A DNA stretch of 64,000 nt from Bythopirellula sp. (GTDB taxonomy: Bacteria; Planctomycetota; Planctomycetia; Pirellulales; Lacipirellulaceae), in contig OZ244170.1 in the NCBI GenBank assembly GCA_965216565.1, forward strand, positions 3,584,001 through 3,648,000. The letters run 5' to 3'. The position numbers and the translations under genes were made by a program. Under the pieces are notes generated by a model. The model made no database searches. It saw nothing but the letters and a program-made list of their open reading frames with translations, and had not been told where the DNA came from. Positions 10,968 to 33,910 of the stretch are shown piece by piece (the first letter of the stretch is position 1; each line of letters begins with the position of its first letter).

Positions 10968-11017
10968 AAAAAAAGACTCATTACGAAGCTTTCTACCCGC
11001 GAGAAAACTTCATACCA
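10968..11017 (-). terminator. Putative terminator/expression platform downstream of the cobalamin riboswitch
   Basis: Minus strand ATGAAGTTTTCT-CGCGGGT-AGAAAGCTTCGT hairpin, followed shortly by a T7 run. Confidence 0.5.
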
Positions 11018-11018
11018 A

Positions 11019-11205
11019 GCGTTGGTAGGTCTTCTGACTCCCAAACTCAAGCCTGGCAATGCCTTCTCGGTCGCCGAGGCGGCCAATGGCTGAAGAAATG
11101 CCTTGCTTGAAGTCGTTTGGTCACAGCGGCGGGGCCGTCCCGGATTCGCACCGGAGTTCCCTGTTTCGTCGGTCGAAGAGCAATCTTTCGACCGACCACC
11201 AACGC
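11019..11205 (-). ncRNA. Cobalamin (B12) riboswitch
   Basis: Minus strand: P1 GCGTTGGT/ACCAACGC, AACAGGGAA, CCGGTGCGAATCCGG, CCCCGCCGCTGTG and B12-box AGTCAGAAGACCT. Confidence 0.93.
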
Positions 11206-11346
11206 ACGTTCAATGCGAAAGCTGTTATAGGCCTGTCATTTCTAATTGTCAAACCCCACCAACTCCGGCTAAAACTTGTTGCTCCCCCCTCTGCGAGCTA
11301 GAATCGAGTATTGAGCTGGGTTGGGGAACCTCGAGAGGATGCACCT

Positions 11347-18866: not shown

Positions 18867-19400
18867 ATGCCCGCAATCCCCGTGTTGACCCATGATCTGC
18901 GAACATTGCATGGGGCCAACGTGCGACGGCTCATGGCCCGACTGAATCTGACACTGCAAGACGTAGTCGAGGCCTCGGATCTCGACGAAAGGACCGTGCG
19001 CAGCATTCTGCAAGGCGTCACACGACCCCATGCCCGTACGCTCCACAAACTAGCCACAGGCCTGGGAGTTGAGGCAGACGAGCTATTTCAGGATCTATCG
19101 CACACCCATCGAGCTTCCTTCGACCGGGCTACCAATCCCGCTGTTTCGGCGGCAATCGATGCCGATCCCCAGCGGTTCGCAGACTGGACCCCCGCCGAGT
19201 TTGAAGAACTATTCAGCCGCATGGCGGTGGGAGGCGAACTGACCGAAGAGGGCGTCCTCACCTCGGCCGAGGCGATTAATTCGCGTCGTCAATTGATGAG
19301 CCAGATAGCTGTGATTCTAGAAAGCGGCGAAGCCGATCACCTGCGCGAGTTTGTCGCCATGCTCTATCATCGCGTGACAGATGTCAGCCATCTCACGTAG
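18867..19400 (+). CDS. XRE-family helix-turn-helix regulator, convergent with the capsid cluster
   Basis: NVRRLM...LTLQDVVEASDLDERTVRSILQG..RPHARTLHKLA.GLGV. Confidence 0.85.
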   Translation: MPAIPVLTHDLRTLHGANVRRLMARLNLTLQDVVEASDLDERTVRSILQGVTRPHARTLHKLATGLGVEADELFQDLSHTHRASFDRATNPAVSAAIDADPQRFADWTPAEFEELFSRMAVGGELTEEGVLTSAEAINSRRQLMSQIAVILESGEADHLREFVAMLYHRVTDVSHLT

Positions 19401-20040
19401 AAACGCGCACTACTTTGGCGATGGGTAACTTGTCGATCCGCGCTGCCTGCTCGATCGATTCCAACCGATAGATTGCGCCATCGGAACCGACGAAGCGATC
19501 GTCCGACTCCACAGGAAACTGCTCTCCCATGACAATTGTAAACCGCTCGATAGCGGTGGGAGCATTGGAGGTGTCGCTCACCGTAGTTTCATCCGGCTGA
19601 ATTCGCACTGGCATCGCAGTATAGACATCGTCCCAACTAGTGATCTCAGGCCCCTGGCCCAAGTCTTGCCAAACGGCCCGCTGTACGTCTACAGAATCGT
19701 CGCAGCCCAAGGCAACGCGCAGTTCCCGCGTTTCGCACTTCAATCGGCCTAGCAGCGAATGCTGGTCCACTGCCAACACAGTCCACTGAGAATCGTCGGC
19801 ATCGATGATGATGTCCCCCAGTTCCAACCGTGTTCCAGCATCCGGCAATTCCAAATACCACACGGCATCCGATTGAACACTCGTACCACCACTCGGCTCA
19901 GCTTCACTCGAAATCTGCTCTCGACGCAGCGAGGTAAGACCGGCCACGAGCGATCCTGACTCGCGCTTACGCAGGGACACGGTTTCCAAACCATCTACCG
20001 AAGTTACAAAATCTTGGCTAGGATCAAACTCAATGCTCAT
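19393..20040 (-). CDS. Putative head-closure/head-tail joining protein (two similar beta domains)
   Basis: Last gene of the head operon; two halves ending GDIIIDADDSQWTVLAV and DDRFVGSDGAIYRLESI. Confidence 0.5.
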   Translation of the reverse strand: MSIEFDPSQDFVTSVDGLETVSLRKRESGSLVAGLTSLRREQISSEAEPSGGTSVQSDAVWYLELPDAGTRLELGDIIIDADDSQWTVLAVDQHSLLGRLKCETRELRVALGCDDSVDVQRAVWQDLGQGPEITSWDDVYTAMPVRIQPDETTVSDTSNAPTAIERFTIVMGEQFPVESDDRFVGSDGAIYRLESIEQAARIDKLPIAKVVRVST

Positions 20041-20255
20041 CCGGTAGTTCCTTCCGACCTAATTTCAAAAGGATCGCAATCAAGCAACTTGCGATCGCAC
20101 CAATCGACGGTGCGCTGTAGCGACTCGACATAGTCAACCCAGGCAACACTTTGGCCATCAATCGAATAAGTAGGTTTGGGACTGGCTCGTAGCTCTTCGA
20201 GCTGCGTCAGCGTCTGAGCTCGAATTGTGGAAATCTGCTCGGTTTCGCTCGACAT
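20037..20255 (-). CDS. Putative head-completion adaptor (gpW-like)
   Basis: Small helical protein with a KPTYSIDGQSV.W hairpin motif, downstream of the capsid gene. Confidence 0.55.
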   Translation of the reverse strand: MSSETEQISTIRAQTLTQLEELRASPKPTYSIDGQSVAWVDYVESLQRTVDWCDRKLLDCDPFEIRSEGTTG

Positions 20256-20257
20256 GG

Positions 20258-20656
20258 TTAGATACACCTCAATTGGAAACGGAAAATGGTTTTCTGCCCT
20301 GTAACGGGCGTTAGTTCATAACGAACTTGATAGACCTTGCCGGCGTCAGGAAATGCTTCGTTCGTAGAGACATAGATTTCGTGCCGGAAGTTGTACCCAT
20401 CGCTATCTACCGTCCAGGTGTCGTCGGTTTGCAAGCTGTCGAACACCACGTCACTAACCGTCAACGAGACCGCATCGTGACCCGTGACGGCACTCAAGCC
20501 AGAGGGGTCGTTGGTCGTTAGTTCGTAGATGCTGTATTCGATTGACGAAACAGATGCCTGGTTCAAATACTGCCCCGACGCGTTGACGACCCGAGCCATG
20601 AGAACGGCAGAACCATTTCGAAACACTTTTGATTTGAAATCAGCCGCTATCGGCAT
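20258..20656 (-). CDS. Hypothetical beta-rich virion-associated protein
   Basis: 132-aa ORF tightly coupled within the head operon. Confidence 0.55.
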   Translation of the reverse strand: MPIAADFKSKVFRNGSAVLMARVVNASGQYLNQASVSSIEYSIYELTTNDPSGLSAVTGHDAVSLTVSDVVFDSLQTDDTWTVDSDGYNFRHEIYVSTNEAFPDAGKVYQVRYELTPVTGQKTIFRFQLRCI

Positions 20657-20727
20657 TTACTCGCTCCTTCCAATTGAAGTGGTCAATCACAACAGGCCCC
20701 TGGCAAAGGCAACTCGCCGCTAACACG

Positions 20728-21492
20728 TCACGCCGCAAACGCTTCGGCCCCAACATTTTCGATTCCTGAGAGATTGACCTCCGCACGCTCGGCTCCATCT
20801 GTTTGCAAGCCCTCCTGCTCGACTGTGTAGGGCCCCGAGAAACGGCAAGGCTGAATGACGGCCTGGCCTCCACGCGGCATGAGCACCCGAGGGTGTTCGG
20901 TCGCGATTGTCCCTCCGGAACTCGTCGCAACTGGTCCCCAACCGGGATGGTTCAACCGGCGTACGCAGTTGTGGTAACAGAGTAAGTTGCTTAGATCGGA
21001 GATCATTAGCGGAGAAATCCCGGCTGCCAACGCCTGGATGTCACCGTCTTGCAGAGCGATATCCAATAACGCAACTTCCGCAGCATCGACTGCGGTGCTT
21101 GTGGCAAGGTTCCCCAAGCTGAAATCATTGACGCCATCAAAGAGTCTTTCGTGATTCACTTCGGTTTGGTTCCCACCGTCCAAATAGACACGCCTGGCAG
21201 TCGCCGATTCAAAGACTCCCGTCACTTGATGCCATTGATTCGCAGACATCGGCGCAGTCGACCGTGCCGCACTGGTACTGGAAACTCTAGATATCGCAAC
21301 CACTTGATTCGCATTATGTCCCTCGTAGTTCAATCCGTGATACGATCCCGTCGTCGTGTTGCTGACACGCATCAAGGTCATCAACGTAGAACTGCTTGGA
21401 ACGCGGAACCAACCCGTCAAGGTAAACGGATAGTCCGTCACAGATAGCGAACCAAGGTCTACTAGATTGCTCGATCCTATTGCCAAAGCCAT
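20728..21492 (-). CDS. LamG/concanavalin-A-like domain protein
   Basis: PFTLTGWFR, NQWHQVTGVF, RRVYLDG, AEVAL.D.AL...I..LA motifs. Confidence 0.75.
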   Translation of the reverse strand: MALAIGSSNLVDLGSLSVTDYPFTLTGWFRVPSSSTLMTLMRVSNTTTGSYHGLNYEGHNANQVVAISRVSSTSAARSTAPMSANQWHQVTGVFESATARRVYLDGGNQTEVNHERLFDGVNDFSLGNLATSTAVDAAEVALLDIALQDGDIQALAAGISPLMISDLSNLLCYHNCVRRLNHPGWGPVATSSGGTIATEHPRVLMPRGGQAVIQPCRFSGPYTVEQEGLQTDGAERAEVNLSGIENVGAEAFAA

Positions 21493-21498
21493 CGTTGG

Positions 21499-21984
21499 TT
21501 ATGCCTCACGCAATTCTAAGGAAATGAGTTCCACGTCTCCCACCAACGTGTCAGCCACATCGGCCGCCTGGCGATTCACTAGCACCTGCAGAACATCGCC
21601 TGCGGCTAGCCCCGTGACCGCGATGGAATCGCTCACGGCAACAACGATGTCTCCGCTAGTTGCAGGGGCTGCGGTGGTTACTTGGCTGCTTCCACTCGCC
21701 GTTGGAGGAGAATCGAGGTTATCTCCAGCGGCAAAATGCACGAGTTCAACCTCGAATTTGCAGTTGCCCGTTACAGCCGAACTGGTTGTCCAAGTCAAAA
21801 GGGCTTCGATCTCACCGCCCGCAAAGTGGCTTGGGACAACCGCTTGAAATTGAGCTTGCTCTTCCGTGGAGTCATCAAAGTCCAGCACCACAAAGTCGCC
21901 TCGCATGTCGACCGTGGCAAAGTCGGCACTTGGCGGTCGATTGGACAATGCGTCGGCAGTCATCAAAGAATCACCGCTTGCCAT
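21499..21984 (-). CDS. Hypothetical jelly-roll virion/fibre-like protein
   Basis: LDFDDSTEE and AAGDVL.V.V.R.AADVADTL.GD..L motifs; AGGGAG RBS before ATG 21984. Confidence 0.55.
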   Translation of the reverse strand: MASGDSLMTADALSNRPPSADFATVDMRGDFVVLDFDDSTEEQAQFQAVVPSHFAGGEIEALLTWTTSSAVTGNCKFEVELVHFAAGDNLDSPPTASGSSQVTTAAPATSGDIVVAVSDSIAVTGLAAGDVLQVLVNRQAADVADTLVGDVELISLELREA

Positions 21985-22083
21985 TTGCTCTACACTCCCT
22001 TCGATTCGTTTGTTGGCATGGAGAAATATTTGTGAATGGCCAGCCACCAGTGCATTGCTGACTGGCCATTCACTCTGGAAGTG

Positions 22084-23244
22084 CTAGCCAGTGCACTTGA
22101 CGACATACCGAGGGTTGAGAACCGCTGGAGCCCCACGTTCGCTCGCCTTGAAGCGAAGCACGATATCATTATTGAAATCGGCTTCACTATTGATGGGTGC
22201 TTGCGTCACCGTAATTGGCCAATTCTCCATGTAGGCGAACGCCTTCGAGAAGTCGCCGATAAACCAGTACTTCTTCGCATCGGCGGCAGCAACGCCCGAG
22301 TTCACGAGCCGCCGGTAAGCAAGGCGACTTTGCTCCACTCGATAGTTGCCCAAGGGATTGGTAGCGGTCGTCGTGGTCGGCAGGCCCGATCCCACGTATG
22401 CAATCTCCGTGGCGTTGAACACGCGATGAGCGGCATGGCGATAGGCTGGCATCACCAACACGCTTGTCCCGCTAACGAGAACGGGTTCGCCGGTCGCTGG
22501 ATCGCTCATTTCGGCAAACAACTGCTCAGCAGCATCGACATTGGTCCAGTCTACTAACTCGTTCGACGCCAGCAGATTCGCCCAACTGCCAGCGGCAGAG
22601 AACGTATTGAAGTTTGCCCCGTTCTGGTTGAAAGAGTTGGTAATACCCATCACGGTATCGAGTAACCGCTTCTCTTTGTTGAGCCCCAACACCTCGCCTA
22701 CCTCAGCGGCACGCGACAAGATTAAGTTAGTCCTGTCGAAGAAAATCGCTTCTTTCGTCACCGGGACAATAAAACCATGCTTGGCAGTTGACGGCGTTTC
22801 GATGTAGTCTTCGCCGAATCCGAGATGAGGATAGGGCATTCCGTTCCCTACTTCGTCGATTCGATCCTCAATGCGATTGACTCCCGGGATCTTTTCTCCA
22901 TCGAATCGTGTCGGAATCGTTTGAACAAGTTTTGATGCAACGAAGGCTTCCTGGGAATAGGAGTCCAAGATTTTCGAATAGATCACCTGGCCTGCGATGT
23001 TTAGAAATGCGGTGACATCGATTCCGTCGGACGACTCCGTCAAGCTTACTGAACCGCTGCTCCGGGGATCGAGCATCCGCACCCAATGACGGCCTTCGGG
23101 GACGAGTGCCTCCGCCAAATCGCGGATGCTAAAATCTTCTGGTTTCAGATGCCCTTCACTGAGCGATTCGGAAAGATGCCGAACCGTGTTTCCGGCTCCG
23201 TCCAGATCGTAACGCCTCTTAAGTTCTCGATAGTTCAAAGTCAC
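22084..23244 (-). CDS. Major capsid protein (HK97-fold, Mu gpT-like)
   Basis: Position after protease and decoration genes; EVGNGMPYP, KHG.IV.VTKEAIFFDRT, LVMPA and WFIGDF motifs; AGGAG RBS before GTG 23244. Confidence 0.82.
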   Translation of the reverse strand: MTLNYRELKRRYDLDGAGNTVRHLSESLSEGHLKPEDFSIRDLAEALVPEGRHWVRMLDPRSSGSVSLTESSDGIDVTAFLNIAGQVIYSKILDSYSQEAFVASKLVQTIPTRFDGEKIPGVNRIEDRIDEVGNGMPYPHLGFGEDYIETPSTAKHGFIVPVTKEAIFFDRTNLILSRAAEVGEVLGLNKEKRLLDTVMGITNSFNQNGANFNTFSAAGSWANLLASNELVDWTNVDAAEQLFAEMSDPATGEPVLVSGTSVLVMPAYRHAAHRVFNATEIAYVGSGLPTTTTATNPLGNYRVEQSRLAYRRLVNSGVAAADAKKYWFIGDFSKAFAYMENWPITVTQAPINSEADFNNDIVLRFKASERGAPAVLNPRYVVKCTG

Positions 23245-23306
23245 AGATTCTTCTCCTGTTTTGCGGGTAGTCTGATTCTGGCTCTCTGCCTCATCACTCT
23301 TCGAAA

Positions 23307-23780
23307 TTAGGCGGCCGCCTGCGGACCTCCGCGGACCACTGTGCTGACGACATCGACAAACACACTCGTGCTGGCAGTTGGAACCCGCTTCACGCACCGT
23401 CCAATGGCGAGGTTCGCAGAAGCGACCCCTTCTACAATCTGGTCTTCCAGCTCCGTTCCCAAAGCTTCTTCGGCACCGCCGATGAAGTCGCCAATCTCAA
23501 ATGTTGACGAGCTGCACTCGAACTCAAACACGCCACTCGTGGCGACTCGAATGGAACCCGATGATTCCGCTGGTGAGGCCTGCATCGCGACGCCAAGAAA
23601 CTGGTCGTGCAATAATTCTTGATTTGCTGCCGGTGTTCCCTGGTCAGTCAGACCCGAGGCCGGCTTTGCCGTCCCACTATCGAGTACGACCAGATCGCCA
23701 ATTTCGATTCCCGCTGAACTCGAAACCGGCATGAGGATCGGATTCGTCTCTCCGTAACGCCAACGCATAGAACTTGCCAT
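23307..23780 (-). CDS. Head decoration/capsid cement protein
   Basis: IEIGDLV, FLGVAMQAS and IRVATSGVFEF motifs; between protease and capsid genes. Confidence 0.65.
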   Translation of the reverse strand: MASSMRWRYGETNPILMPVSSSAGIEIGDLVVLDSGTAKPASGLTDQGTPAANQELLHDQFLGVAMQASPAESSGSIRVATSGVFEFECSSSTFEIGDFIGGAEEALGTELEDQIVEGVASANLAIGRCVKRVPTASTSVFVDVVSTVVRGGPQAAA

Positions 23781-23829
23781 GAATTTCTTCTCCTGAATTT
23801 AGGGTGTGCAAATAGACAATCGGCTTTGT

Positions 23830-24792
23830 TTAGTTGAGGGAGCCAACACGCTGAATAGCCTTGGCAAACGCTGAAGCACCTTCCGGCTCATTGGAAGGCT
23901 GAGATTGCAGAGCAATTTGATCGACGGAGCGAGGAATCCTGGGCGAGTTTAGTTTCGAGGATGTACCAGCCGTCTCAAGAAGTTCAACCCGCTCCAACAC
24001 TAGCTGTTCGAGTTGCGAATCGTCTTCGATTGCGAGCAACATCTCATAGAAAGCCCGGCTTACCGTTTGAGGCCCCGCAGCACTCCTGTTGCCATTACCT
24101 TCCCGGTGCTTTGGTAAGCGAAGCCCATGCTCACAGAGCAACTCCAGCGTCTTCCTCTGTCGGGCGAGCCCCGCACATCGAACTTCCGACTCTTGCAACT
24201 TTTCACGCAGGCTCTCAGCACTTTGACGACTGTGCTCCTCGAGTAAATCTGGGCGACAATTCTGCAGATGCTCCAAAGTAAGCTCATTCCACTTGAGCCC
24301 TTCTTGATCGTACTCGTACAAACCCAGCGTCGCGGCAGGATCGGCGACCAAGTCGACACTTTGAACATGCGTAATCTCTTCCACCACAGTCGATTGCCCA
24401 TCTCGCGTGACACGTGCGAGTACGTTGTGAGAGACTCCCACATTCCGAGGATTGTGCTCAGCATCCCAAACCAGTTGCTCCGCCAAAGGATGTTTGGGAT
24501 TGAAATGCAAGTCTCCAAACAGCCCTTCGCTTTCGCGAAACTGAACCTCCCGAATCACGCCCAGCCGATCCTGGTAGTCGCGTGGCGATAAGGGCCCGCT
24601 CTTGGGATGATTCACGTTGACTTTTGCTCCTTCATAAAGCGATTGAGCCTTCCGCAGTGCATTTGGTTCATACACCCGGCCATTGCGCGAGGTGAGTCCG
24701 ATAAGCTTCACTCCCTTGAGCACGCCGCGTTTCGAGTCGACACGAAGCGTTGTTCCTTGCGAGTCGACAAATTCTTGTAGAGCTTCGGCCAT
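23830..24792 (-). CDS. Prohead protease/scaffold fusion
   Basis: GVKLIG..SRNGR.Y, VNVNHP, VGVSH and VQSVDLVADPA motifs; coiled-coil C-terminus. Confidence 0.75.
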   Translation of the reverse strand: MAEALQEFVDSQGTTLRVDSKRGVLKGVKLIGLTSRNGRVYEPNALRKAQSLYEGAKVNVNHPKSGPLSPRDYQDRLGVIREVQFRESEGLFGDLHFNPKHPLAEQLVWDAEHNPRNVGVSHNVLARVTRDGQSTVVEEITHVQSVDLVADPAATLGLYEYDQEGLKWNELTLEHLQNCRPDLLEEHSRQSAESLREKLQESEVRCAGLARQRKTLELLCEHGLRLPKHREGNGNRSAAGPQTVSRAFYEMLLAIEDDSQLEQLVLERVELLETAGTSSKLNSPRIPRSVDQIALQSQPSNEPEGASAFAKAIQRVGSLN

Positions 24793-24824: not shown

Positions 24825-24870
24825 AAAAAAAGCCTCGGACAAAAACCTCAAGGGTTCTCGTCCGAGGCTC
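24825..24870 (-). terminator. Intrinsic terminator/attenuator upstream of the protease-capsid genes
   Basis: AGCCTCGGACGAGAACC-CTTGA-GGTTTTTGTCCGAGGCT followed by a T run. Confidence 0.85.
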
Positions 24871-24943
24871 GATGGGATACGCCTGCCGCTCAATCAGCAC
24901 ACGCTCTTTTCGATACCTGTTTGCCTGGGGTCGCTTACGCCGC

Positions 24944-25123
24944 TTACTTCACCATCCGATCTACGTTGACCCGTGTGTACTGAATGTGTCCGTCTTGTAC
25001 GTTCACCGTCACACTTGCGGTACCAAAGAAGCCACGACCACTGACGCTTTCGATGAGCCTGTCAAATTCCTGACGGGCTTGGGTGCTTCGATCAGTCGAA
25101 TTCAAAGAGTTTTGTTTGCTCAT
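24944..25123 (-). CDS. Small YezD/DUF2292-like protein
   Basis: 59 aa, helix followed by GFFGTASVTVNVQDGHIQ..RV. Confidence 0.55.
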   Translation of the reverse strand: MSKQNSLNSTDRSTQARQEFDRLIESVSGRGFFGTASVTVNVQDGHIQYTRVNVDRMVK

Positions 25124-25168
25124 GATGGGTCTCACTTTAGCAAAATGCGAAGGTCATTTCAGCAACTA

Positions 25169-26572
25169 TTATTGGCCACTTTGGTTGGCCGATTCGTCAC
25201 GATGCATGAGGATGTTCTTTTGCTCCTGGTCATAGTCGAGCCCCAACCGCAGGCTCCATGTTTGAGGTGAAATTAGTCCATTGTCGAACGCCACCTTTTC
25301 GACCTGGCAGTCTCTTACCTGGTCGCGCACCCGTAGCGACGGAGGTGTGATCTGAAGTTCGATCAATTTTCGGGTGTCGCGGTGTAGGCGTCCTTGGGCG
25401 ACCGCATTTTCGATTACATGCCACATCACGCGGCGATCGTCTTCAATGACACTGGCCTGAAGTCTTTCAAACATTTTTACCGCAGGACCCTCTGCTACGA
25501 GTGTCGAGGCATAGTTTGAATTCGAGGCGTCGGAAGTAAACATATACTCTGGCATCACCAGCCTGGCGGCCACGGCACGCAGCTCTGCCTGTAGCACGGT
25601 TACGAAATTACTGGCGTTGATCCCCGCAGCAGGAAAGTCGTACTCGGTGCCGTCAGGGGCATCGAGAATCGTGCCCGGTGAATACTGCGAAAGCTGACGT
25701 CGCCGGCCACTTGCCGGGTCAAGACCACTCGCTTCGCTATTACCGCTGACAAACTGTTCGACACCCGTGCGAGAAGCGCCTCGATGCTTGCGAATTAACG
25801 CAATTGCCGACTGAATTTCTGAAACAATGCTCATGTTTCGCAGCAGTTTTTCTATCCGACGCAGATTCTTGCTCACCGGGTAATACAGGGGCAAACCTCG
25901 TTTCACGTTTCGATCCACGTTTGCCTTTCGATGCTGAACCTCCGTGGCAGGCACCACCTCACCGTCAACAAAATAGGACAAGACCGATTCCACATCATTT
26001 GCCTCTGTATGAATCCCAAAACTAGCCTCCGGACTCTGTAGGAGTTCCCGCGGTGTGACTACTTGATCTGGCTCAACAAATCGAACACGAGTAATACCTG
26101 CGGAATCAACAAAGAATCGAAGAAACAGCTCTCCGTCGCGATCCATACGACGCATCATCTCCTGTTGCCTTGATTGCCATGAGTTCTCTTCCATAAACTC
26201 CTCGAGCAGTTTTTGCACATCCATTTCCAAATTGGTCGGAGCATTAGCACCTTTCCGAGCTGACGCCCGATAATGATGACCGACCCCGACGACATAGCTC
26301 GTCCGGTTTTCAATGCCGTTAATTGCAAACTCATTGGTTGCTACCAAGCGTCGACTCTGTTGGCGGATCTCTGCCAGTTGCTCAGTATTCCCATATGGCA
26401 CGCTGCGGGCTGGGACGCTGCCCTGTTCGCTGGACACAACGTTCCACCAAACGCCATCGTCGTGCACATAGGCTTCAGAGGGATCGACCAGTTGACTCCA
26501 CAACGCATCGCAAGCTTCGGTCAGGCGTTGTTCTAATTGCGCTTGGCTATTGCCGTTTGCCATCGTTGTCAT
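25169..26572 (-). CDS. Phage portal protein
   Basis: RDGELFLRFF, VRFVEPDQV, RGLPL and DASNSNYAS motifs; follows the terminase gene. Confidence 0.88.
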   Translation of the reverse strand: MTTMANGNSQAQLEQRLTEACDALWSQLVDPSEAYVHDDGVWWNVVSSEQGSVPARSVPYGNTEQLAEIRQQSRRLVATNEFAINGIENRTSYVVGVGHHYRASARKGANAPTNLEMDVQKLLEEFMEENSWQSRQQEMMRRMDRDGELFLRFFVDSAGITRVRFVEPDQVVTPRELLQSPEASFGIHTEANDVESVLSYFVDGEVVPATEVQHRKANVDRNVKRGLPLYYPVSKNLRRIEKLLRNMSIVSEIQSAIALIRKHRGASRTGVEQFVSGNSEASGLDPASGRRRQLSQYSPGTILDAPDGTEYDFPAAGINASNFVTVLQAELRAVAARLVMPEYMFTSDASNSNYASTLVAEGPAVKMFERLQASVIEDDRRVMWHVIENAVAQGRLHRDTRKLIELQITPPSLRVRDQVRDCQVEKVAFDNGLISPQTWSLRLGLDYDQEQKNILMHRDESANQSGQ

Positions 26573-26652
26573 CGTTCTTGCTCCCGATTTGTTTAACGTG
26601 TTGAAATGGATTCATGGATACTAGTTGACTGTTGTGTCATCCTCGATACGAA

Positions 26653-28269
26653 CTATCCGACTGCCAATCGGTCGCCCAGACCATCGTCGGGAATGTTCTG
26701 GTTCACACTACCAATCAGCCGCACTGCCATCTCGAGGGCGTCCGGACCATCGTCGTGAGCGCCCAGCGGAAAGTCGCGCAGTTGGTCTACAAGTAGCGTG
26801 GTTGAGACGGAGCCTTGCACAAAACGCAAACGCCGCTGCGAAAGCAATGCCTCCAATCGGCGTATTCGAGATTGCTTATTCAGAGTATTGTGAATCGAAC
26901 AGACTTGTAGCGAGCGGAGCCCGCGTGTGTTGCACTCCCGACGAAACTCGTCGGCTAGCAGTTCTTGAAACTGATTGGCTTCTACGCCAAAGGTATTAAC
27001 CCGATGCCGCTCGCAGAGCGTCAACCCATCGGCGACCATCTGCGAGATATGCCGTTTCGCCAAATCGGCTTCGACGTACATGACTCCGCGATCGTCCATG
27101 CCTAGGACAACAAAAGCAGAGTAGTCGCCCTGTCGAGACTGCACGCCTTTGCTGGGATCCAAAGCAATTACTTTCCGCGGCAACTGTTCCGGCCACGCTT
27201 GGAACCACACGTGCTCGCCAAAGTACTCATCCGGCCATTCGCAACGTTCGGGATCGATCGGTGAACTTTGCTTTTCTCTCTCAAATGCACTGCGGCCTTC
27301 TTCCACACACATTTTCATCAGCGTGTATAGATCCTCTTCCTCAGGCCATAAGAGTTCCGCACCTTCATCCATTGCCTTTCTGTTCTTGACATAGAAAAAC
27401 CAAGCATCGCGGCGGGCAGAGTGGTTGCTGAGATCGCAATATATCGTTTCCCATCGCTTCCACAGTGCGTCGTTCGTGGGCCATTTGAGAATTGCCTTGA
27501 ACTTCTTCGAACGCCACCCTGGATTGCGATCGAACTGCATCGCCAGCGCATCGCGGTGGAGGGCTGTTGCTAGGTTGAGAACGTTCGTGTGCTTGGTCCC
27601 CGCCTTGAGTAGGGTTCCATGAAACCAGCGCGTCGAGCTTTCTCGGAGCGTGGCCGATGCCATGTGGTCATCGTTTTGCAAATCATCGCAGACGATCAGC
27701 GAGGGGCGAGACTCTCTGATTCGTCTGCCTCGCAATCGCTGCCCAGTTCCAAAACCTTCGATCACAACTCCATTTGGAAGAATCATAGAACCACGTCGCC
27801 AGCGGGCCCCGCGTCCTGTTGCCTGCGGAAAGTCGCGCGCCAGGAGCGGATTGCCCTCTAGCTCGGCTTTGATGTTCTCCAGATGAGTTTGTGCCTGGTC
27901 CTTGGTATCGGAGACTAGCCAGATGTAAGGCTCCCACGCATCTAGTGCCGCCCGGAGGATGTAGCACAGACTTCCAATGGTCGACTTGGCCCCGCCTCGC
28001 GGGCCGATGACATTGATTTTCGTGCCGCGCTGGTTGTGCATATCGTCCAGCTGCTGTCCTAGCCAGCAGTGCATAACCGAAGGCTGCCGGTGGAAGTGCC
28101 GCGGCAAGTAGCGACGGCCCCACGATAGTGTGTCGAGCTGACTACTACGTTGCTTGCACCGGATACGTCGGCCAATGCCCTGGAACAACGCACGCGACAA
28201 TCGGCTGACGTGGCTATCTACCTGGCACGAGTCGGAGTTGGGGTCGATTCGCCGCCTGTGGTCACTCAT
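26653..28269 (-). CDS. Terminase large subunit
   Basis: Walker A GPRGGAKST, Walker B LIVCDDLQ, nuclease ALDPS..GDYSA, VEANQFQ and HDDGPDAL motifs; ATG overlaps the small-subunit stop. Confidence 0.92.
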   Translation of the reverse strand: MSDHRRRIDPNSDSCQVDSHVSRLSRALFQGIGRRIRCKQRSSQLDTLSWGRRYLPRHFHRQPSVMHCWLGQQLDDMHNQRGTKINVIGPRGGAKSTIGSLCYILRAALDAWEPYIWLVSDTKDQAQTHLENIKAELEGNPLLARDFPQATGRGARWRRGSMILPNGVVIEGFGTGQRLRGRRIRESRPSLIVCDDLQNDDHMASATLRESSTRWFHGTLLKAGTKHTNVLNLATALHRDALAMQFDRNPGWRSKKFKAILKWPTNDALWKRWETIYCDLSNHSARRDAWFFYVKNRKAMDEGAELLWPEEEDLYTLMKMCVEEGRSAFEREKQSSPIDPERCEWPDEYFGEHVWFQAWPEQLPRKVIALDPSKGVQSRQGDYSAFVVLGMDDRGVMYVEADLAKRHISQMVADGLTLCERHRVNTFGVEANQFQELLADEFRRECNTRGLRSLQVCSIHNTLNKQSRIRRLEALLSQRRLRFVQGSVSTTLLVDQLRDFPLGAHDDGPDALEMAVRLIGSVNQNIPDDGLGDRLAVG

Positions 28270-28732
28270 CTTGCGGTTCCTCATGAGTCTCGTCGGGTTC
28301 TGCTTCCGCCATCTGGGCCATTTCAGCAAGTTTCATTAGTACGCGATCACGATCTTCCTCGCAGTTGACGCTAGTGAAAATCACTTCGATCAGCTCTTTC
28401 AAATATTCCTGCAGATCCTTGGTGGTCACAGGCTTGCTAGAATTCCGGTTTCGACGCCGTTTTGCTTTTTGCTCCAACCACCAGGTGGCTGCGCGCCAAT
28501 GCTTTTCATCCTCGGCCGCCTTGTGAACCGCCTTCATACGATGAAGTTCCGCCATCCCTTCGCTGCGTAATAACTCTTGGGCGAACTCTGAGTCGTCCTC
28601 CATCTGTTTTTGAAGTTGAACGATGGTCGCACGCATAGCCTGTGCGGCGGACGCCCGTTCGCAACCCATCTGCACCATGTGACAGATCGCGTGTTTTTGT
28701 TCTGTGGAAAGAGGGGGCGTTGATTCGGGCAT
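28262..28732 (-). CDS. Putative terminase small subunit
   Basis: N-terminal HTH-like segment and WRAATWWLE motif; directly upstream of TerL. Confidence 0.65.
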   Translation of the reverse strand: MPESTPPLSTEQKHAICHMVQMGCERASAAQAMRATIVQLQKQMEDDSEFAQELLRSEGMAELHRMKAVHKAAEDEKHWRAATWWLEQKAKRRRNRNSSKPVTTKDLQEYLKELIEVIFTSVNCEEDRDRVLMKLAEMAQMAEAEPDETHEEPQDE

Positions 28733-28790
28733 ACACGAGGCGATTGGGGCGAGTCAATCCGTTAAGGCTTGTTCATTTGATTCGTTGCGG

Positions 28791-29942
28791 CTAGTCCCCG
28801 ACATATTCAAACGACACCACAGCCCGGCCGGCGGAACTTCGATAGTTGGCAAACCGTTGCGCATTGGACCGGCCCGAGCCAGTTTTCTTTACGCTAACCG
28901 CTTTCCATTGTGTAGAACGTTTGCAATGGCGAATGAGCGATGGGTGACTGCTGGTGACGTTGATCCGCAATCCCTCTGCGCGATGCAGCGACGCCACGGC
29001 AGCCACCACCCGCATGCCGATGCCCATGCCTTGAAAATCTGGCAGCGTCACTATTCGCGTGAATCGCCTGTGACCTTTCTTCGCAATCACAGGAAGCGTG
29101 GCACAAAACGCCACTGGCTCGCCCTCCCAGGTGGCCAGGTAGCTGCGCGCTCCGATGGCAAGAGAACCGCTCAGATAGTGATGCTTCGCAAACAGTTTCC
29201 AAGCAGCCAATTTCGAGCGGTGGATTTCCAATTGAATTGGGGGTCGCCGAAGACGCCTCCGGTGCAGTTGACGCGTGGCCATATCCAAGACCCAATCCGC
29301 CTCCAGCCACTCCGCCACGTCGTAGTGGCAGGTGACCGCTACGAAGCGGCGCGGGATATTCCTCTTGCGAACTGCCTTGGAGATGGCCGTCGAGCAGGCC
29401 TTGGCCACATTGCGATCAACCACACTCGTGAACTCATCGAAAACGACTAGGGGTCTAGAGTCTAGAGACGAGAGCCCAGAGCCACTCTGTCCGCGAGTCT
29501 CTTCTGGCTCTCGACTCTCGTCTCTAGACTCTCGACTACCCAATAACGCCTTGGCCAGATTGCAACGAAACTGTTCGCCACAACTTAGCACCTGGTAAGG
29601 TTTGATCCAGGAAGGCGGCGAACTGAATCCCACTGCAGTGAACAACTCGACAACTTGCTTCACTGGCAAATCCTCGAAGCAGTCGAGCACGGATCGTTCT
29701 GCTGGCCAGCTCTCGGTGCTATAGAGTTCTTCTCCGTACAGCTCATTGGCAATGGTACTTTTTCCGCTTCCCGAGGGGCCCACGATCAGACCGATGTCCC
29801 ACGATTCCTGACGACTGGGTGTCTCCACCGAGAACTTCTCGGAAACCCTCTCCTCTAGCGGCACATCGAACATGCCTGCCACCTGCTGCACTCGAAACGA
29901 ATCATAGATCGGGCAACTCACTACAACGTCAACACTCGACAT
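28791..29942 (-). CDS. ABC-type ATPase fused to a GNAT acetyltransferase (Mom-like)
   Basis: GPSGSGKST, LSCGEQFR, FDEFTSVVDR, CHYD, FAKHHYL and RIVTLPDFQGMGIG motifs. Confidence 0.85.
   Translation of the reverse strand: MSSVDVVVSCPIYDSFRVQQVAGMFDVPLEERVSEKFSVETPSRQESWDIGLIVGPSGSGKSTIANELYGEELYSTESWPAERSVLDCFEDLPVKQVVELFTAVGFSSPPSWIKPYQVLSCGEQFRCNLAKALLGSRESRDESREPEETRGQSGSGLSSLDSRPLVVFDEFTSVVDRNVAKACSTAISKAVRKRNIPRRFVAVTCHYDVAEWLEADWVLDMATRQLHRRRLRRPPIQLEIHRSKLAAWKLFAKHHYLSGSLAIGARSYLATWEGEPVAFCATLPVIAKKGHRRFTRIVTLPDFQGMGIGMRVVAAVASLHRAEGLRINVTSSHPSLIRHCKRSTQWKAVSVKKTGSGRSNAQRFANYRSSAGRAVVSFEYVGD
29451..29541. repeat. Palindromic heptamer-repeat element inserted in frame in the ABC-GNAT gene
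   Basis: TAGAGTC-TAGAGAC-GAGAGCC-CAGAGCC ... CTGGCTC-TCGACTC-TCGTCTC-TAGACTC-TCGACTA. Confidence 0.75.
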
Positions 29943-30478
29943 CGACGCCCCTCCTCTCGCATACGCTCGTAGATTTCGCGCTGTTCCTCTTCGTTGTCGC
30001 ACTGCACAACGACTTGAAATAACTCGGGAATTTGCAATTCTGCTTCGGCCAGCGAATCTTCTCCGCCATTGGCATGTGCTCCCGTCTGCAATTGATCCAG
30101 CATTTCGGCGACATGCGGACTATCGAAATCGCATAGCCCCAGCAAGTCGTCTACCTGGCCCATGTTTGTTTCAGCCAACGCCGCCAGGGGATCGTGCGTT
30201 AACAGAATCTTCAGGGCTTCCTCTTCGTTCACGTCGAGCACCAACACCGGCACCTTGGCATCAGGTGTGGTTTCGGCGCGGAGATGCCCATCAATTAATT
30301 CCAATCGGCCGTCCTCCAATTCTCTGGCCAGCAGTGCATCGGCATAGCCAATCTCCGCAAGCACGCCGCATAAGGCATCGCGTTGTGCGGGAGGATGGCT
30401 ACGCCAATTCCTGGGATTAGGCACCAAGTCGCTGGCCCGAACGCGACGCAGCTCTTTTATGCGATCCTGTATTTGCAT
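29921..30478 (-). CDS. ParB N-terminal domain protein (terminase-linked)
   Basis: LVPNPRNWRSHP, IGYADALL and LIDGHLR motifs. Confidence 0.85.
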   Translation of the reverse strand: MQIQDRIKELRRVRASDLVPNPRNWRSHPPAQRDALCGVLAEIGYADALLARELEDGRLELIDGHLRAETTPDAKVPVLVLDVNEEEALKILLTHDPLAALAETNMGQVDDLLGLCDFDSPHVAEMLDQLQTGAHANGGEDSLAEAELQIPELFQVVVQCDNEEEQREIYERMREEGRRCRVLTL

Positions 30479-30505
30479 CTAATGACTTTCTCTGCAATCA
30501 GTCGC

Positions 30506-30805
30506 TTAATGCTGTTTAAGCAACTGCCTGACCAAGTCGCGGACCTCTTTGATTTCGCTGCGCAGTTCCGTCCGCATGCGTTGGTTGCCTATCTCGATGG
30601 CTGCCAATCGGGCTTGAACTTCGCCGATTTCCCGAGTGGAAACGTAGTCTCTCGCATTCCTGGTAGCGAAGTCTTCCTCGGGTTCCGACGGCGACGCCAC
30701 CGTGGTGGCCACGGCACCCAGAATTGCCGTAATCAATGTCGCCGCCGCAGGCCAACTTAGCTCTCTGCGATGGGGCTTCGTTTGCGATGGTTCAGTTTGG
30801 TCCAT
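30506..30805 (-). CDS. Small single-TM coiled-coil protein (holin/spanin-like?)
   Basis: WPAAATLITAILGAVATTVA hydrophobic segment followed by a heptad-rich tail. Confidence 0.55.
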   Translation of the reverse strand: MDQTEPSQTKPHRRELSWPAAATLITAILGAVATTVASPSEPEEDFATRNARDYVSTREIGEVQARLAAIEIGNQRMRTELRSEIKEVRDLVRQLLKQH

Positions 30806-30820
30806 ACACCTGGGCCCTTC

Positions 30821-31501
30821 CTATTGAACTTTTCCACCTGCGGTTTCGGAACGTAAGTTAGGCGAGTCACCTGGCCCCAGTGGCTCTTCGCTTGGCCGTA
30901 CACCAGCCGCCATATCGGTACGATTCGCATCGCCAGCAAACGCATTGAGGTATTCCAAAACTTGCACGTAGTTGCCGTACATTCGCATCGAATCGTTGAC
31001 GTAAATAAACGTGCCGCGAAATCGACTTTCCAGGCGCGTCCAATTGCAGATAGCTCGATCAATCGCGCCTAGCAGAATCAGCGCGTTCTGACTGCGGAAG
31101 TTGAGTTGACTGCTGACGGGGATATTGGGATCGCTACCGTCTACCGCCCAGGGCAACGCAATCAAGCCACCAGGAGCGTCCTGAACGTCGTCGCCGCCAA
31201 AGGGCTCGGTCGAACCCAATAGAGTTTGGTTCGAGTCGATCGCACGCTCGATAAGTTCTCCCAGCGGAGTTTTCTCCGGATTGTAGGTCACCCGGCGACG
31301 CATCCGATCGCAGGCTAATAAATGTGAGATGTAGTGCGACTTGGTGGTATTATCGAGACCGCCCCGCACACCGAACTCATCGTTTGAAACCACTTCGCTG
31401 CGAAAATCGAACAGGGGTCCCAACGCGGCCACGATATGTAAGTTGCGAAATTCAGAGATTGCCCGACGAAATTGTTCTTGTCCTGGGTCACCAGCTGGCA
31501 T
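30821..31501 (-). CDS. Hypothetical protein of the capsid cluster
   Basis: 226-aa ORF with AAGGAG RBS. Confidence 0.7.
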   Translation of the reverse strand: MPAGDPGQEQFRRAISEFRNLHIVAALGPLFDFRSEVVSNDEFGVRGGLDNTTKSHYISHLLACDRMRRRVTYNPEKTPLGELIERAIDSNQTLLGSTEPFGGDDVQDAPGGLIALPWAVDGSDPNIPVSSQLNFRSQNALILLGAIDRAICNWTRLESRFRGTFIYVNDSMRMYGNYVQVLEYLNAFAGDANRTDMAAGVRPSEEPLGPGDSPNLRSETAGGKVQ

Positions 31502-31503
31502 GG

Positions 31504-31857
31504 TTAGTTCTCCTTTGTCTGAACTTGAAGTTTGGTGGGAGCAATTTCATTGAACCGCTCTCGTAAATCTCTTCTCAACGCGTCAGCCCAACTTCGCTCG
31601 TCCTGCGACGAACGGTCACTGTCGGCAATCGCATCGAGTCGATCGAGTGCAAGCCTTCCTGCAACCGCATCTTGTAACGGGTCACGTCCCTCATGTCGCG
31701 AAAGTTGTAGAAGTTGTCGAGCCTCATGGTCGTCTCGCTGGATGGGTTGAAATATGGCCGCCGATTCGTCGGCGACCTCCTCTTCTTCCTTAGATGCTGC
31801 GGTTGATTGCTGCGTACTATTCCCCGAGAAAGGGACGCCGACGACCTCGGGCGTCGT
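31504..31857 (-). CDS. Start-less helical ORF, possibly a frameshift extension of the protease
   Basis: 117 sense codons (...QRDDHEARQLLQLSRHEGRDPLQDAVAGRLALDRLD...KEN*); it fills the gap and stops 2 nt before the next ATG; no ATG or GTG, and the only TTG is near the 3' end. Confidence 0.6.
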   Translation of the reverse strand, partial: TTPEVVGVPFSGNSTQQSTAASKEEEEVADESAAIFQPIQRDDHEARQLLQLSRHEGRDPLQDAVAGRLALDRLDAIADSDRSSQDERSWADALRRDLRERFNEIAPTKLQVQTKEN

Positions 31858-32908
31858 TCAATCGGTTCTTCATTCCGCGTCCCACTAGCCAACCAGCCAC
31901 CGTCCCAACGGCCAGCACTGCCCAGCCTGCGGGACCGCTGAGCCCGAGAGTCGTGGCGATCTTACTGCCAACGTGTTTCCCAACACCGACGCTTCTTGAG
32001 GCAACCAGGCTCCTCACTTTTTCTAGAATCGAATCTTGCTGGGAATCAAGTTGTTGCCGGGTCGCATAGTCGCCACTCGGTTGCTTTTTCCGCTCGAGCC
32101 TCTCAACGTCGGCCGCCAATCGATCAAGGCGCGCGTCTCGCACAATTGAAGATTCTTCGCGCTCGGCGATCCGTGGCTGTTGGGGATGCTGTGGAATCGG
32201 CGTGAGAGGCTGCGCGGGTTCGGGCATGGCAGGGCGAGGACAGAGTCCGTTAGGGCAGTTCACCACAACCTGCTGTTTGCGACCGAGAACTCTACCTACA
32301 AAGCTTCGCAAGGGACGCCCGCAGCTGGCATACGTTACCCCATCTCGCTGGCCCCAAACCACCGCAACGAGCTGGCCGCGGTCATTGAACACCCCGCCCC
32401 CAGAGTCGCCCGTTCGCACTGCACTTCCCAACAACACACTCGTCTGCCCTTGCTGATTCGAAGTACCCACGGCCAGGCCCGAAACACATCGATACTGACC
32501 CGACTGGCCATACCCACAGGCGGTCAAGTTTGATTTCTGATTTAGTTCAAACGCCACAGGCGCTGGTTGCACAGGTGGATTGGCGATCACGAGCGCTGCC
32601 AGGTCAGCAGATTCATCAAGCGCGACTAACCGTGCCCCGTACGTACGGCCACTGGCAAACTGCACTACAATCTTCCCCGTACCTTCGCGAAACAGGTGCC
32701 AGCAACTGAGCACCAGCCCCGCACGCTGGTCGTTCGAGCAATCGATCAACGTACCGCTGCCGACGTTCGAGAAACCTGATAGCTGGTTGAGGACGCGACA
32801 CGACGCCTCCGCAGGTACGCTTGCCTCTGACCTTGTTGCACATAGCGATATCAAAGCCCCGAGCGCGAATGCAATGGTAAGCTTCTTAGAAATCGGTAGG
32901 TTTCGCAT
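31817..32908 (-). CDS. Secreted trypsin-like serine protease with C-terminal membrane segment
   Basis: Signal peptide; GSGTLI, LSCWHL, DLAAL and GDSGGGV catalytic triad motifs; C-terminal GPAGWAVLAVG.VAGWLV. Confidence 0.88.
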   Translation of the reverse strand: MRNLPISKKLTIAFALGALISLCATRSEASVPAEASCRVLNQLSGFSNVGSGTLIDCSNDQRAGLVLSCWHLFREGTGKIVVQFASGRTYGARLVALDESADLAALVIANPPVQPAPVAFELNQKSNLTACGYGQSGQYRCVSGLAVGTSNQQGQTSVLLGSAVRTGDSGGGVFNDRGQLVAVVWGQRDGVTYASCGRPLRSFVGRVLGRKQQVVVNCPNGLCPRPAMPEPAQPLTPIPQHPQQPRIAEREESSIVRDARLDRLAADVERLERKKQPSGDYATRQQLDSQQDSILEKVRSLVASRSVGVGKHVGSKIATTLGLSGPAGWAVLAVGTVAGWLVGRGMKNRLNDARGRRRPFLGE

Positions 32909-32909
32909 C

Positions 32910-33500
32910 TTAGACCCCCGCCAATGTAAAGCGATATCGATAGAACGGACTACGGGCCAGATCGGCGGGTTCTGTCACCCGGTCGGCCAAGTGCGGCACC
33001 GGATCGATGCCTCCCCCTACACGATCAGCCAGAGCGCAGGCTTCTGAGCAAAACGGCGGTCGGCTGGTAATCTTTAGATCATCCATATCTGGACGCACCC
33101 ACAATCGCCACATCGGCATGTGCCGCAACGCGGCGAGGAGCACGCCGAAATATCCGTAGTCGCAGCCAGCCAACCGCCGAATGTACCTCACAGCACCCGG
33201 TTGGTCGTAACCTCGCCAACGATCGCCGGGATTGGTTTCGAACACGTCAATCGATCCGGGCAGTCGTGCCACCTGGCTTTCCAGTGTCACGGCACGGCCT
33301 CCCTGCAGTTCGCGCACTTCGCAGCAAAACAAGGTATCGCCCCACCAAACCGCTCGCGCCGCATGGGTGTATTCGCTACGACCCGCGATGCGAATCAAGC
33401 GTGCCAAGAATCCGCGACCTCGAAAGAGCAATAGATCGCCGTCGCAGATGCGATCTTCCGCGTGCCGAAGCAACAACAAGGATCGAAAGTTGGTTTCCAA
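32910..33500 (-). CDS. Permuted papain-like (YiiX/YaeF, NlpC/P60) protein
   Basis: DGDLLLFRG, YTHAA, G.DY, FCSE and VTEPADL motifs; GGAGGGG RBS before TTG 33500. Confidence 0.75.
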   Translation of the reverse strand: METNFRSLLLLRHAEDRICDGDLLLFRGRGFLARLIRIAGRSEYTHAARAVWWGDTLFCCEVRELQGGRAVTLESQVARLPGSIDVFETNPGDRWRGYDQPGAVRYIRRLAGCDYGYFGVLLAALRHMPMWRLWVRPDMDDLKITSRPPFCSEACALADRVGGGIDPVPHLADRVTEPADLARSPFYRYRFTLAGV

Positions 33501-33527: not shown

Positions 33528-33570
33528 AAAAAAAGCCCGGCGAGAACACAATGGTCCTCAGCCGGGCTCT
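33528..33570 (-). terminator. Intrinsic terminator/attenuator in the leader of the cluster's first gene
   Basis: AGCCCGGC-TGAGGACCATTGTGTTCTC-GCCGGGCT followed by a T run. Confidence 0.8.
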
Positions 33571-33910
33571 TCGGATACCTGCATTAGGCTCTGGTAGATA
33601 CCTCAACGACAAGAGCTAACTTATCGCAAAGCGTGGCCCAAGTTCAAAGAGAAAGTGAGAAGATTTCGAACGCGCCTTGGCATGACTCGATAGCAACGAC
33701 GGTCCTTGGCTTCGGAATAACATCAACACTAAGATGTTCTTAGTGAGCCTTCCCCTAGATGCGTCGGCCGATGAAACCCTGTGCAGGTTAGTAAGAGTGG
33801 ATATGCTCCAGCTTTGGATGTAACTACAATGTACATCCGCTACATAGAAACGTGTCCGCCACTACTTTCAATGCCATGATAAAACTTGTCCTCTCTTACA
33901 GGCCATCCCT

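Follow-up and report, generated by a model that had tools for sequence, protein, structure and literature searches.

A conserved RNA rod overlapping an intrinsic terminator in a Pirellulales phage-head cluster: a putative antitermination switch and its candidate 59-aa binder

Introduction

In ANTAR (PF03861) systems, a tandem RNA motif is found whose second part overlaps a terminator. For the BglG/SacY/LicT family, the RAT is described as a short hairpin that partially overlaps a stronger terminator and forms only with the protein (PMC3105407; PMC12591593). For LicT, a dimer of the CAT domain is described that reads the two bulged bases of the RAT with symmetry-related surfaces (PMC3105407). 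Among the polymorphic toxins, the MuF capsid type is presented by Zhang et al. 2012 as an association of terminase, portal, and capsid genes with nuclease toxin genes, and the prophage-derived capsids are proposed there to be loaded with toxins (PMC3482391).

The window analysed here is a stretch of 64,000 nucleotides from the genome of a Bythopirellula sp., and all positions refer to it. A sequence-only reading had placed a tandem-motif attenuator in the leader of a phage-head cluster on the minus strand, with another copy near 24.8 kb. Like the ANTAR targets, this RNA is a tandem motif with its second part in the terminator. Like the RAT, it contains a hairpin that partially overlaps and excludes an intrinsic terminator.

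Organization of the Phage-Head Cluster

The first cluster gene (32910-33500, on the minus strand like the cluster genes, promoters, and switches given below) encodes a 196-aa protein matched by the profile phrog_1128 and was detected in 102 of the 120 genomes of the family. It is followed, still behind the first switch, by the protease, ParB-like, ABC/GNAT, small and large terminase subunit, and portal genes (25169-32908). The gene of the 59-aa protein lies at 24944-25123, and the second switch is followed by a maturation protease/scaffold, a cement protein, the capsid, and further genes (19393-24792). Within the cluster of the Bythopirellula genome, no match to tail families was obtained. Of the 151 genomes sampled from the order, 109 gave a capsid match, and over a large part of the order each genome has roughly one copy of the cluster.

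In one relative (L075, genome G202), the cluster is rearranged: a promoter and switch stand before the ParB-like gene and before the portal, and no switch separates the 59-aa gene from the protease. At the cluster end in the window, an XRE-type HTH gene (18867-19400) is oriented convergently, likewise in L068, L069, and L075; its product is a possible repressor. A cobalamin riboswitch was also observed in the window, at 11007-11218.

Tandem Motif and Promoters

The letters of the motif reported for minus strand 33603-33528 match the sequence exactly. The ribosome-binding site and the TTG that were said to follow are both located 3' of the motif: GGAGGGG at 33517-33511, visible in the sequence and the leader alignment, and TTG at 33500, where or near where many relatives have TTG, GTG, or ATG. 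A chance origin of the motif, already doubted in the sequence-only reading, is contradicted by the counts: AGGTATC-N3-5-AGAGC occurs three times in the window, where 0.01 occurrences would be expected, and three or more were obtained in none of 100 shuffles. Nor is the motif frequent in the 5.2-Mb genome, with seven single occurrences, three of which are in the cluster, and two tandem ones, both in the cluster. The same two sites were retrieved from the genome by a covariance model (E-values of 8e-7 and 6e-5; next match at 1.4; 150 of 995 candidates scored), and no Rfam family matched at either site. At both copies, the second AGAGCC had been described as the 5' arm of the terminator. A small correction applies to the copy at 24.9 kb, where the second repeat reads GTATC-N5-GAGCC and falls outside the full 7+5 pattern; the terminator base is nonetheless made by this GAGCC.

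Both sites are conserved across the order. Among 30 leader loci, a strict pattern detected the element at 27 and a relaxed pattern at all 30; among 30 internal loci, the strict pattern detected it at 25. Where matches of the motif carry a name, the titles read Pirellulales, Lacipirellulaceae, Thermoguttaceae, and similar.

Upstream of the element, the leaders contain the promoter consensus TTGAAA-N18-TAnnnT, based on an alignment of 28 rows, from which two wrongly anchored rows were left out. In the window, the predicted -35 hexamer is TTGAAC (33642-33647; TTGAAA in relatives), conserved in the aligned leaders and followed by an 18-nt spacer and the predicted -10 hexamer TAAGTT (33618-33623), whose T, A, and T do not vary in any of the 28 rows. 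The spacer carries a box at 33633-33640 with an invariant GCCA (28/28 rows), a possible operator. From this conserved pair, transcription is predicted to start at ~33611, about 9 nt 5' of the RNA structure described below, and hence upstream of the hairpin, on the side that the attenuator reading needs. A second predicted promoter (25134-25179; -35 at 25162-25157, -10 at 25139-25134), aligned with relatives, precedes the 59-aa gene. The start codon of this gene is located 10 nt after the -10 hexamer here and mostly 7-10 nt in relatives, which would make the transcript near-leaderless. Both copies of the motif lie 3' of a conserved promoter-like site, and the earlier proposal of an attenuator that the capsid genes share with the accessory/packaging genes is supported. 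A GTGGCCA/TGGCCAC box is common to both promoters (33633-33640 and 25169-25179) and forms an inverted pair in some relatives.

RNA Structure and Terminator Overlap

The tandem repeats are real, but instead of acting as separate boxes they cross-pair to form a single rod. From covariation, folding, and the covariance model, the antiterminator rod is predicted at 33564-33602. In the 89 distinct elements that were parsed, GGUAUC of repeat 1 pairs with GAGCC of repeat 2, and GAGC of repeat 1 with GUAUC of repeat 2, a helix from which a variable central stem continues. In the window, the outer helix is formed by 33602-33597 with 33569-33565 and has a bulged A at 33599; the inner helix is formed by 33591-33587 with 33579-33574 and has a bulged A at 33576. 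The rod consists of two dyad-related, identical GUAUC/GAGC modules around a 5x4-5 internal loop, and the single bulged A of each helix is invariant. The internal loop and the central stem vary freely, and the spacing between the repeats ranges from 5 to over 30 nt. A second rod is predicted at 24865-24917 from the sequence and the covariance model.

The pairing was examined on an alignment of 55 elements, 54 of which come from loci fetched by protein and not by motif. Rod pairing amounts to 93.8%, compared with at most 53% for slid controls. Two-sided changes affect seven pairs and 70 cells, a cell count not reached in any of 500 shuffles, which nevertheless overstates the number of events, as kin share changes. 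Within the conserved modules, the compensatory changes are C-G to G-C (4), G-C to A-U (2), A-U to G-C (2), and C-G to U-A (3). In all 89 elements the rod surpasses local hairpins in stability, and in 76 of them it lies within 1 kcal of the minimum. A fold of two local hairpins was rejected, with no two-sided changes and 497 of 500 shuffles pairing as well.

The last five bases of the rod are the first five of an intrinsic terminator, a hairpin followed by U7 (33528-33569), and the rod excludes the terminator base. The second intrinsic terminator, recognized from sequence and alignment, is located at 24825-24870. The same five-base overlap is present at every conserved site, including sites far from the 59-aa gene. 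In a GTDB scan with a pattern lacking the terminator, in which 80 of at least 119 matches were examined, a terminator follows 38 of 43 Planctomycetota matches vs. 0 of 37 others, and the 59-aa gene lies within 600 nt upstream in 23 of 43 vs. 0 of 37. That the conserved rod overlapping the terminator is an attenuator can be considered well supported.

The leader rod of the Bythopirellula genome is weak (-5.4 kcal/mol). The leader has a folding energy of -36.0 kcal/mol with the terminator and -20.8 kcal/mol with the rod forced; forcing the rod thus costs ~15 kcal/mol, which makes termination the predicted default. The 'silent by default' of the sequence-only reading can be retained in this form, as a prediction from folding energies for the case without protein.

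The 59-aa Protein and Its Linkage to the RNA

The 59-aa gene is present as a single copy in each of 99 of 120 family genomes. Its product, the candidate antiterminator, is predicted to fold into a helix plus a beta-hairpin and appears to be a remote relative of DUF2292. In pairwise hhalign, the family profile matched DUF2292 with a probability of 86% (E-value 5e-6), and with 62% in another comparison. The Pfam cut-off of DUF2292 (PF10055) was not reached by the 59-aa protein, and of 79 homologs six matched at E-values of 0.05-0.4. A symmetric homodimer was predicted with a score of 0.69 (best control 0.00; pLDDT 81), a mark that 20 of 30 dimers and 1 of 23 monomers with solved structures also reach, and the prediction runs agree in at least 97% of the contacts. 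Fold searches with the monomer model (pLDDT 72) gave no clear match (best Z 4.0), and a search from a distant homolog returned no annotated phage and no viral locus. Canonical DUF2292 genes in other Planctomycetota (L136-L154) are mostly followed 3' by tandem short hairpins with a bulged geometry that looks similar by eye. These hairpins precede sulfate-binding or porin-like genes, and no Rfam family matched them.

Gene and RNA are lost together. Among capsid loci across the order, the rod was found at E < 0.01 in 12 of 13 loci with the 59-aa gene vs. 0 of 24 without it. Of the latter, 18 had been fetched because the gene was missing and six picked by the capsid alone; three loci at contig edges or with split clusters were set aside. 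On a capsid tree of 40 rows (one short row dropped, three unlabelled), the gene/RNA label changes seven times, with at least five changes forced by well-supported branches; as the clusters have decayed at many of these loci, general decay may account for part of the co-loss. In G136, an intact cluster lacks the 59-aa gene and both sites, including the leader site 8 kb away. In L392 (G247), whose capsid has diverged, a promoter resembling that of the 59-aa gene runs straight into the start codon of the protease, which looks like a joint deletion of gene and switch.

The linkage extends to phages. Among 33 viral matches of the tandem pattern, 24 occur with cluster genes, two belong to one unrelated phage of a 91-kb type, and seven look like chance matches or repeats. 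The unrelated 91-kb phage contains, in a row, the portal, a homolog of the 59-aa protein (E-value 1e-10), a full rod, and a terminator. The unrelated phages with this gene-RNA adjacency have no other tested cluster gene in common. Other phages carry, 3' of DUF2292-like genes, a one-module form composed of GGUAUU, a stem-loop, AAGCC, and a terminator. Of 37 viral pattern matches, 9 (one of them doubtful) have it behind small genes matched by either profile at E < 0.05; it precedes head proteases in several phages and terS in one anammox-type prophage. Two members of the order (L068, L375) have a one-module switch at the internal site that resembles this phage form.

The pairing has exceptions. 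In an order-wide RNA search, which scored 39 candidates per genome so that misses are not absences, the 59-aa gene was undetected in seven of 63 RNA-positive genomes. Among the seven, which include G240, G173 ends at a contig edge. In G151, G154, G180, G209, and G230 (drafts 91-99% complete), a second look found neither the 59-aa gene nor the portal; their switches are intact despite this, and a canonical DUF2292 is present elsewhere in three of them. These five genomes may hold relics, have assembly gaps, or be served by another factor. Conversely, G210 has the gene, and no rod was found. G151 carries four switches (L200-L202, L409) with near-consensus promoters ahead of non-phage genes (histidine kinase, BlaI/BlaR-like) and a second short conserved stretch 3' of the terminator; they are possibly a co-opted regulon.

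Switch Copies outside the Cluster

A motif scan had been proposed to uncover unlinked regulon genes. None were found in the Bythopirellula genome, but relatives did reveal them, several with 4-10 switch copies. In 60 regions, a biased sample fetched mostly from multi-copy genomes, 44 complete switches were counted, with cluster leaders at four of the loci. Behind the switch at 21 loci, the genes encode polymorphic toxin-like proteins that combine one of three N-terminal families with variable C-termini: the first at L196, L197, L204, L207, L215, L349, L353, and L361; the second at L199, L205, L211, L213, L347, L348, L356, L359, L360, and L374; and the third at L209, L210, and L336. These families, none of which occurs in the Bythopirellula genome, are candidate packaging or delivery signals.

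Pfam nuclease toxins (AHH, SHH, WHH, or CDI-type) were identified at six loci in five genomes and immunity domains (Imm11 or SMI1/KNR4) at four loci. No MuF domain was called at the switch-linked toxin loci. In the four cassette-bearing genomes checked, tail-family matches follow the capsid in all four, three clearly and G223 with one minor-tail match. As the unlinked copies head toxin/immunity cassettes in tailed relatives, a co-regulated toxin-delivery particle is suggested, and the toxins may, by analogy with the MuF system (PMC3482391), be its cargo. Behind the unlinked switch at L208 stand two small genes without a family match, which we take to resemble a tail assembly chaperone pair.

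Discussion

The locus is probably controlled by a protein-dependent antitermination switch, opened by the predicted homodimer of the cluster's own DUF2292-like 59-aa protein, which is the likely binder. Transcription would start ~9 nt 5' of the rod, and the nascent RNA would fold into it. When no protein is present, the stronger terminator would take the last five bases of the rod and RNA polymerase would stop. With a separate predicted promoter for the 59-aa gene, located 5' of the second switch, the protein would be made first. Once accumulated, one dimer would bind both modules, and both switches would open. Read-through from the first switch would then yield more 59-aa protein, a positive feedback expected to result in delayed all-or-none expression.

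The same RNA switch might have another opener, such as a small molecule, a protein of the host or another one of the cluster, or a canonical DUF2292 paralog, with the 59-aa gene merely travelling with the RNA. The five genomes with intact switches and no 59-aa gene found would be explained in this way, as would the G151 switches between consensus promoters and non-phage genes. Such an opener is nonetheless unlikely, since the gene-RNA adjacency recurs in unrelated phages without the other tested cluster genes and the co-loss is seen on at least five branches. Moreover, the freely variable internal loop and central stem are unlike a ligand pocket, and no CAT domain (PF03123) was found in the Bythopirellula genome (94% complete), while four control genomes were positive.

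Somewhat less probable still is a 59-aa protein that binds the rod and acts otherwise, in the loading of a nut/put-like processive antitermination complex, in RNA protection or processing, or in negative autofeedback. The large energy gap to the terminator would fit such a role, and so would a gene directly 5' of one site, as for autoregulators; yet the five-base terminator overlap, dispensable for a loading site, is the same at each conserved site. Finally, near-identical direct repeats just 3' of a promoter could be DNA operators of a DNA-binding regulator, with ordinary terminators behind them, but this is very improbable given that the repeat spacing varies widely, that the changes are compensatory across the repeats, and that many one-sided G-U changes preserve RNA pairing.

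Taking antitermination by the 59-aa protein as the working model, a wider one can be put forward more tentatively, somewhat short of an even chance. A phage-derived, undescribed antiterminator family, made of remote DUF2292 dimers that would read dyad RNA rods with bulged A's, may be the master switch of a domesticated Pirellulales particle that is order-wide, co-ordinating head and tail operons with dispersed cargo toxin/immunity cassettes. If true, this would be a new interbacterial toxin-delivery system, from which the Bythopirellula lineage would have lost tail and toxins and kept head and switch for another use, e.g., gene transfer. Expression of one 59-aa protein would then induce the particle, a one-gene route to switch on a phage-like particle inherited by much of a bacterial order. 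The RNA would serve as a tag locating the unlinked client genes of the particle, many of them polymorphic toxins, and would turn the question of the purpose of the capsid cluster into a direct experiment. The proposed switch also suggests a role for a family of small proteins that has lacked an explanation, and would add a new RNA-protein antitermination pair. In the titles and abstract openings searched, no function was assigned to DUF2292, no DUF2292 RNA binder was mentioned, and nothing was found on the motif, the phage-head cluster, the dyad structure, the co-loss, or the toxin regulon.

Compared with the known systems, the switch shares with the RAT of BglG/SacY/LicT two symmetry-related bulges, here the invariant A's, which would be met by a small predicted homodimer. 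Membership in the BglG/LicT family was rejected, the CAT domain not being found. Unlike the CAT proteins, the candidate binder is a helix-plus-hairpin protein of 59 aa that stands alone, with no sensor domain; unlike the RAT, the RNA places two modules of identical sequence around a loop that varies; and the targets are phage-head and toxin genes instead of sugar genes. The dual hairpins of the ANTAR systems differ from the present RNA, where covariation rejects two local hairpins; a search for the ANTAR domain gave no match in the genome, and none in the controls either. The nearest protein family is DUF2292/YezD/OscA (PF10055), to which the 59-aa protein is linked by profile similarity and by the similar geometry of the hairpins after canonical members. 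It differs from canonical DUF2292 in staying below the Pfam cut-off, in the letters of the RNA, and in its phage-derived targets. As in MuF delivery and gene transfer agents, prophage-derived head genes are associated here with nuclease toxin genes; in contrast to MuF, the toxin cassettes have no called MuF domain and are unlinked, tied to the cluster only by the common RNA switch, and the roughly single-copy occurrence of the cluster over much of an order is a further difference.
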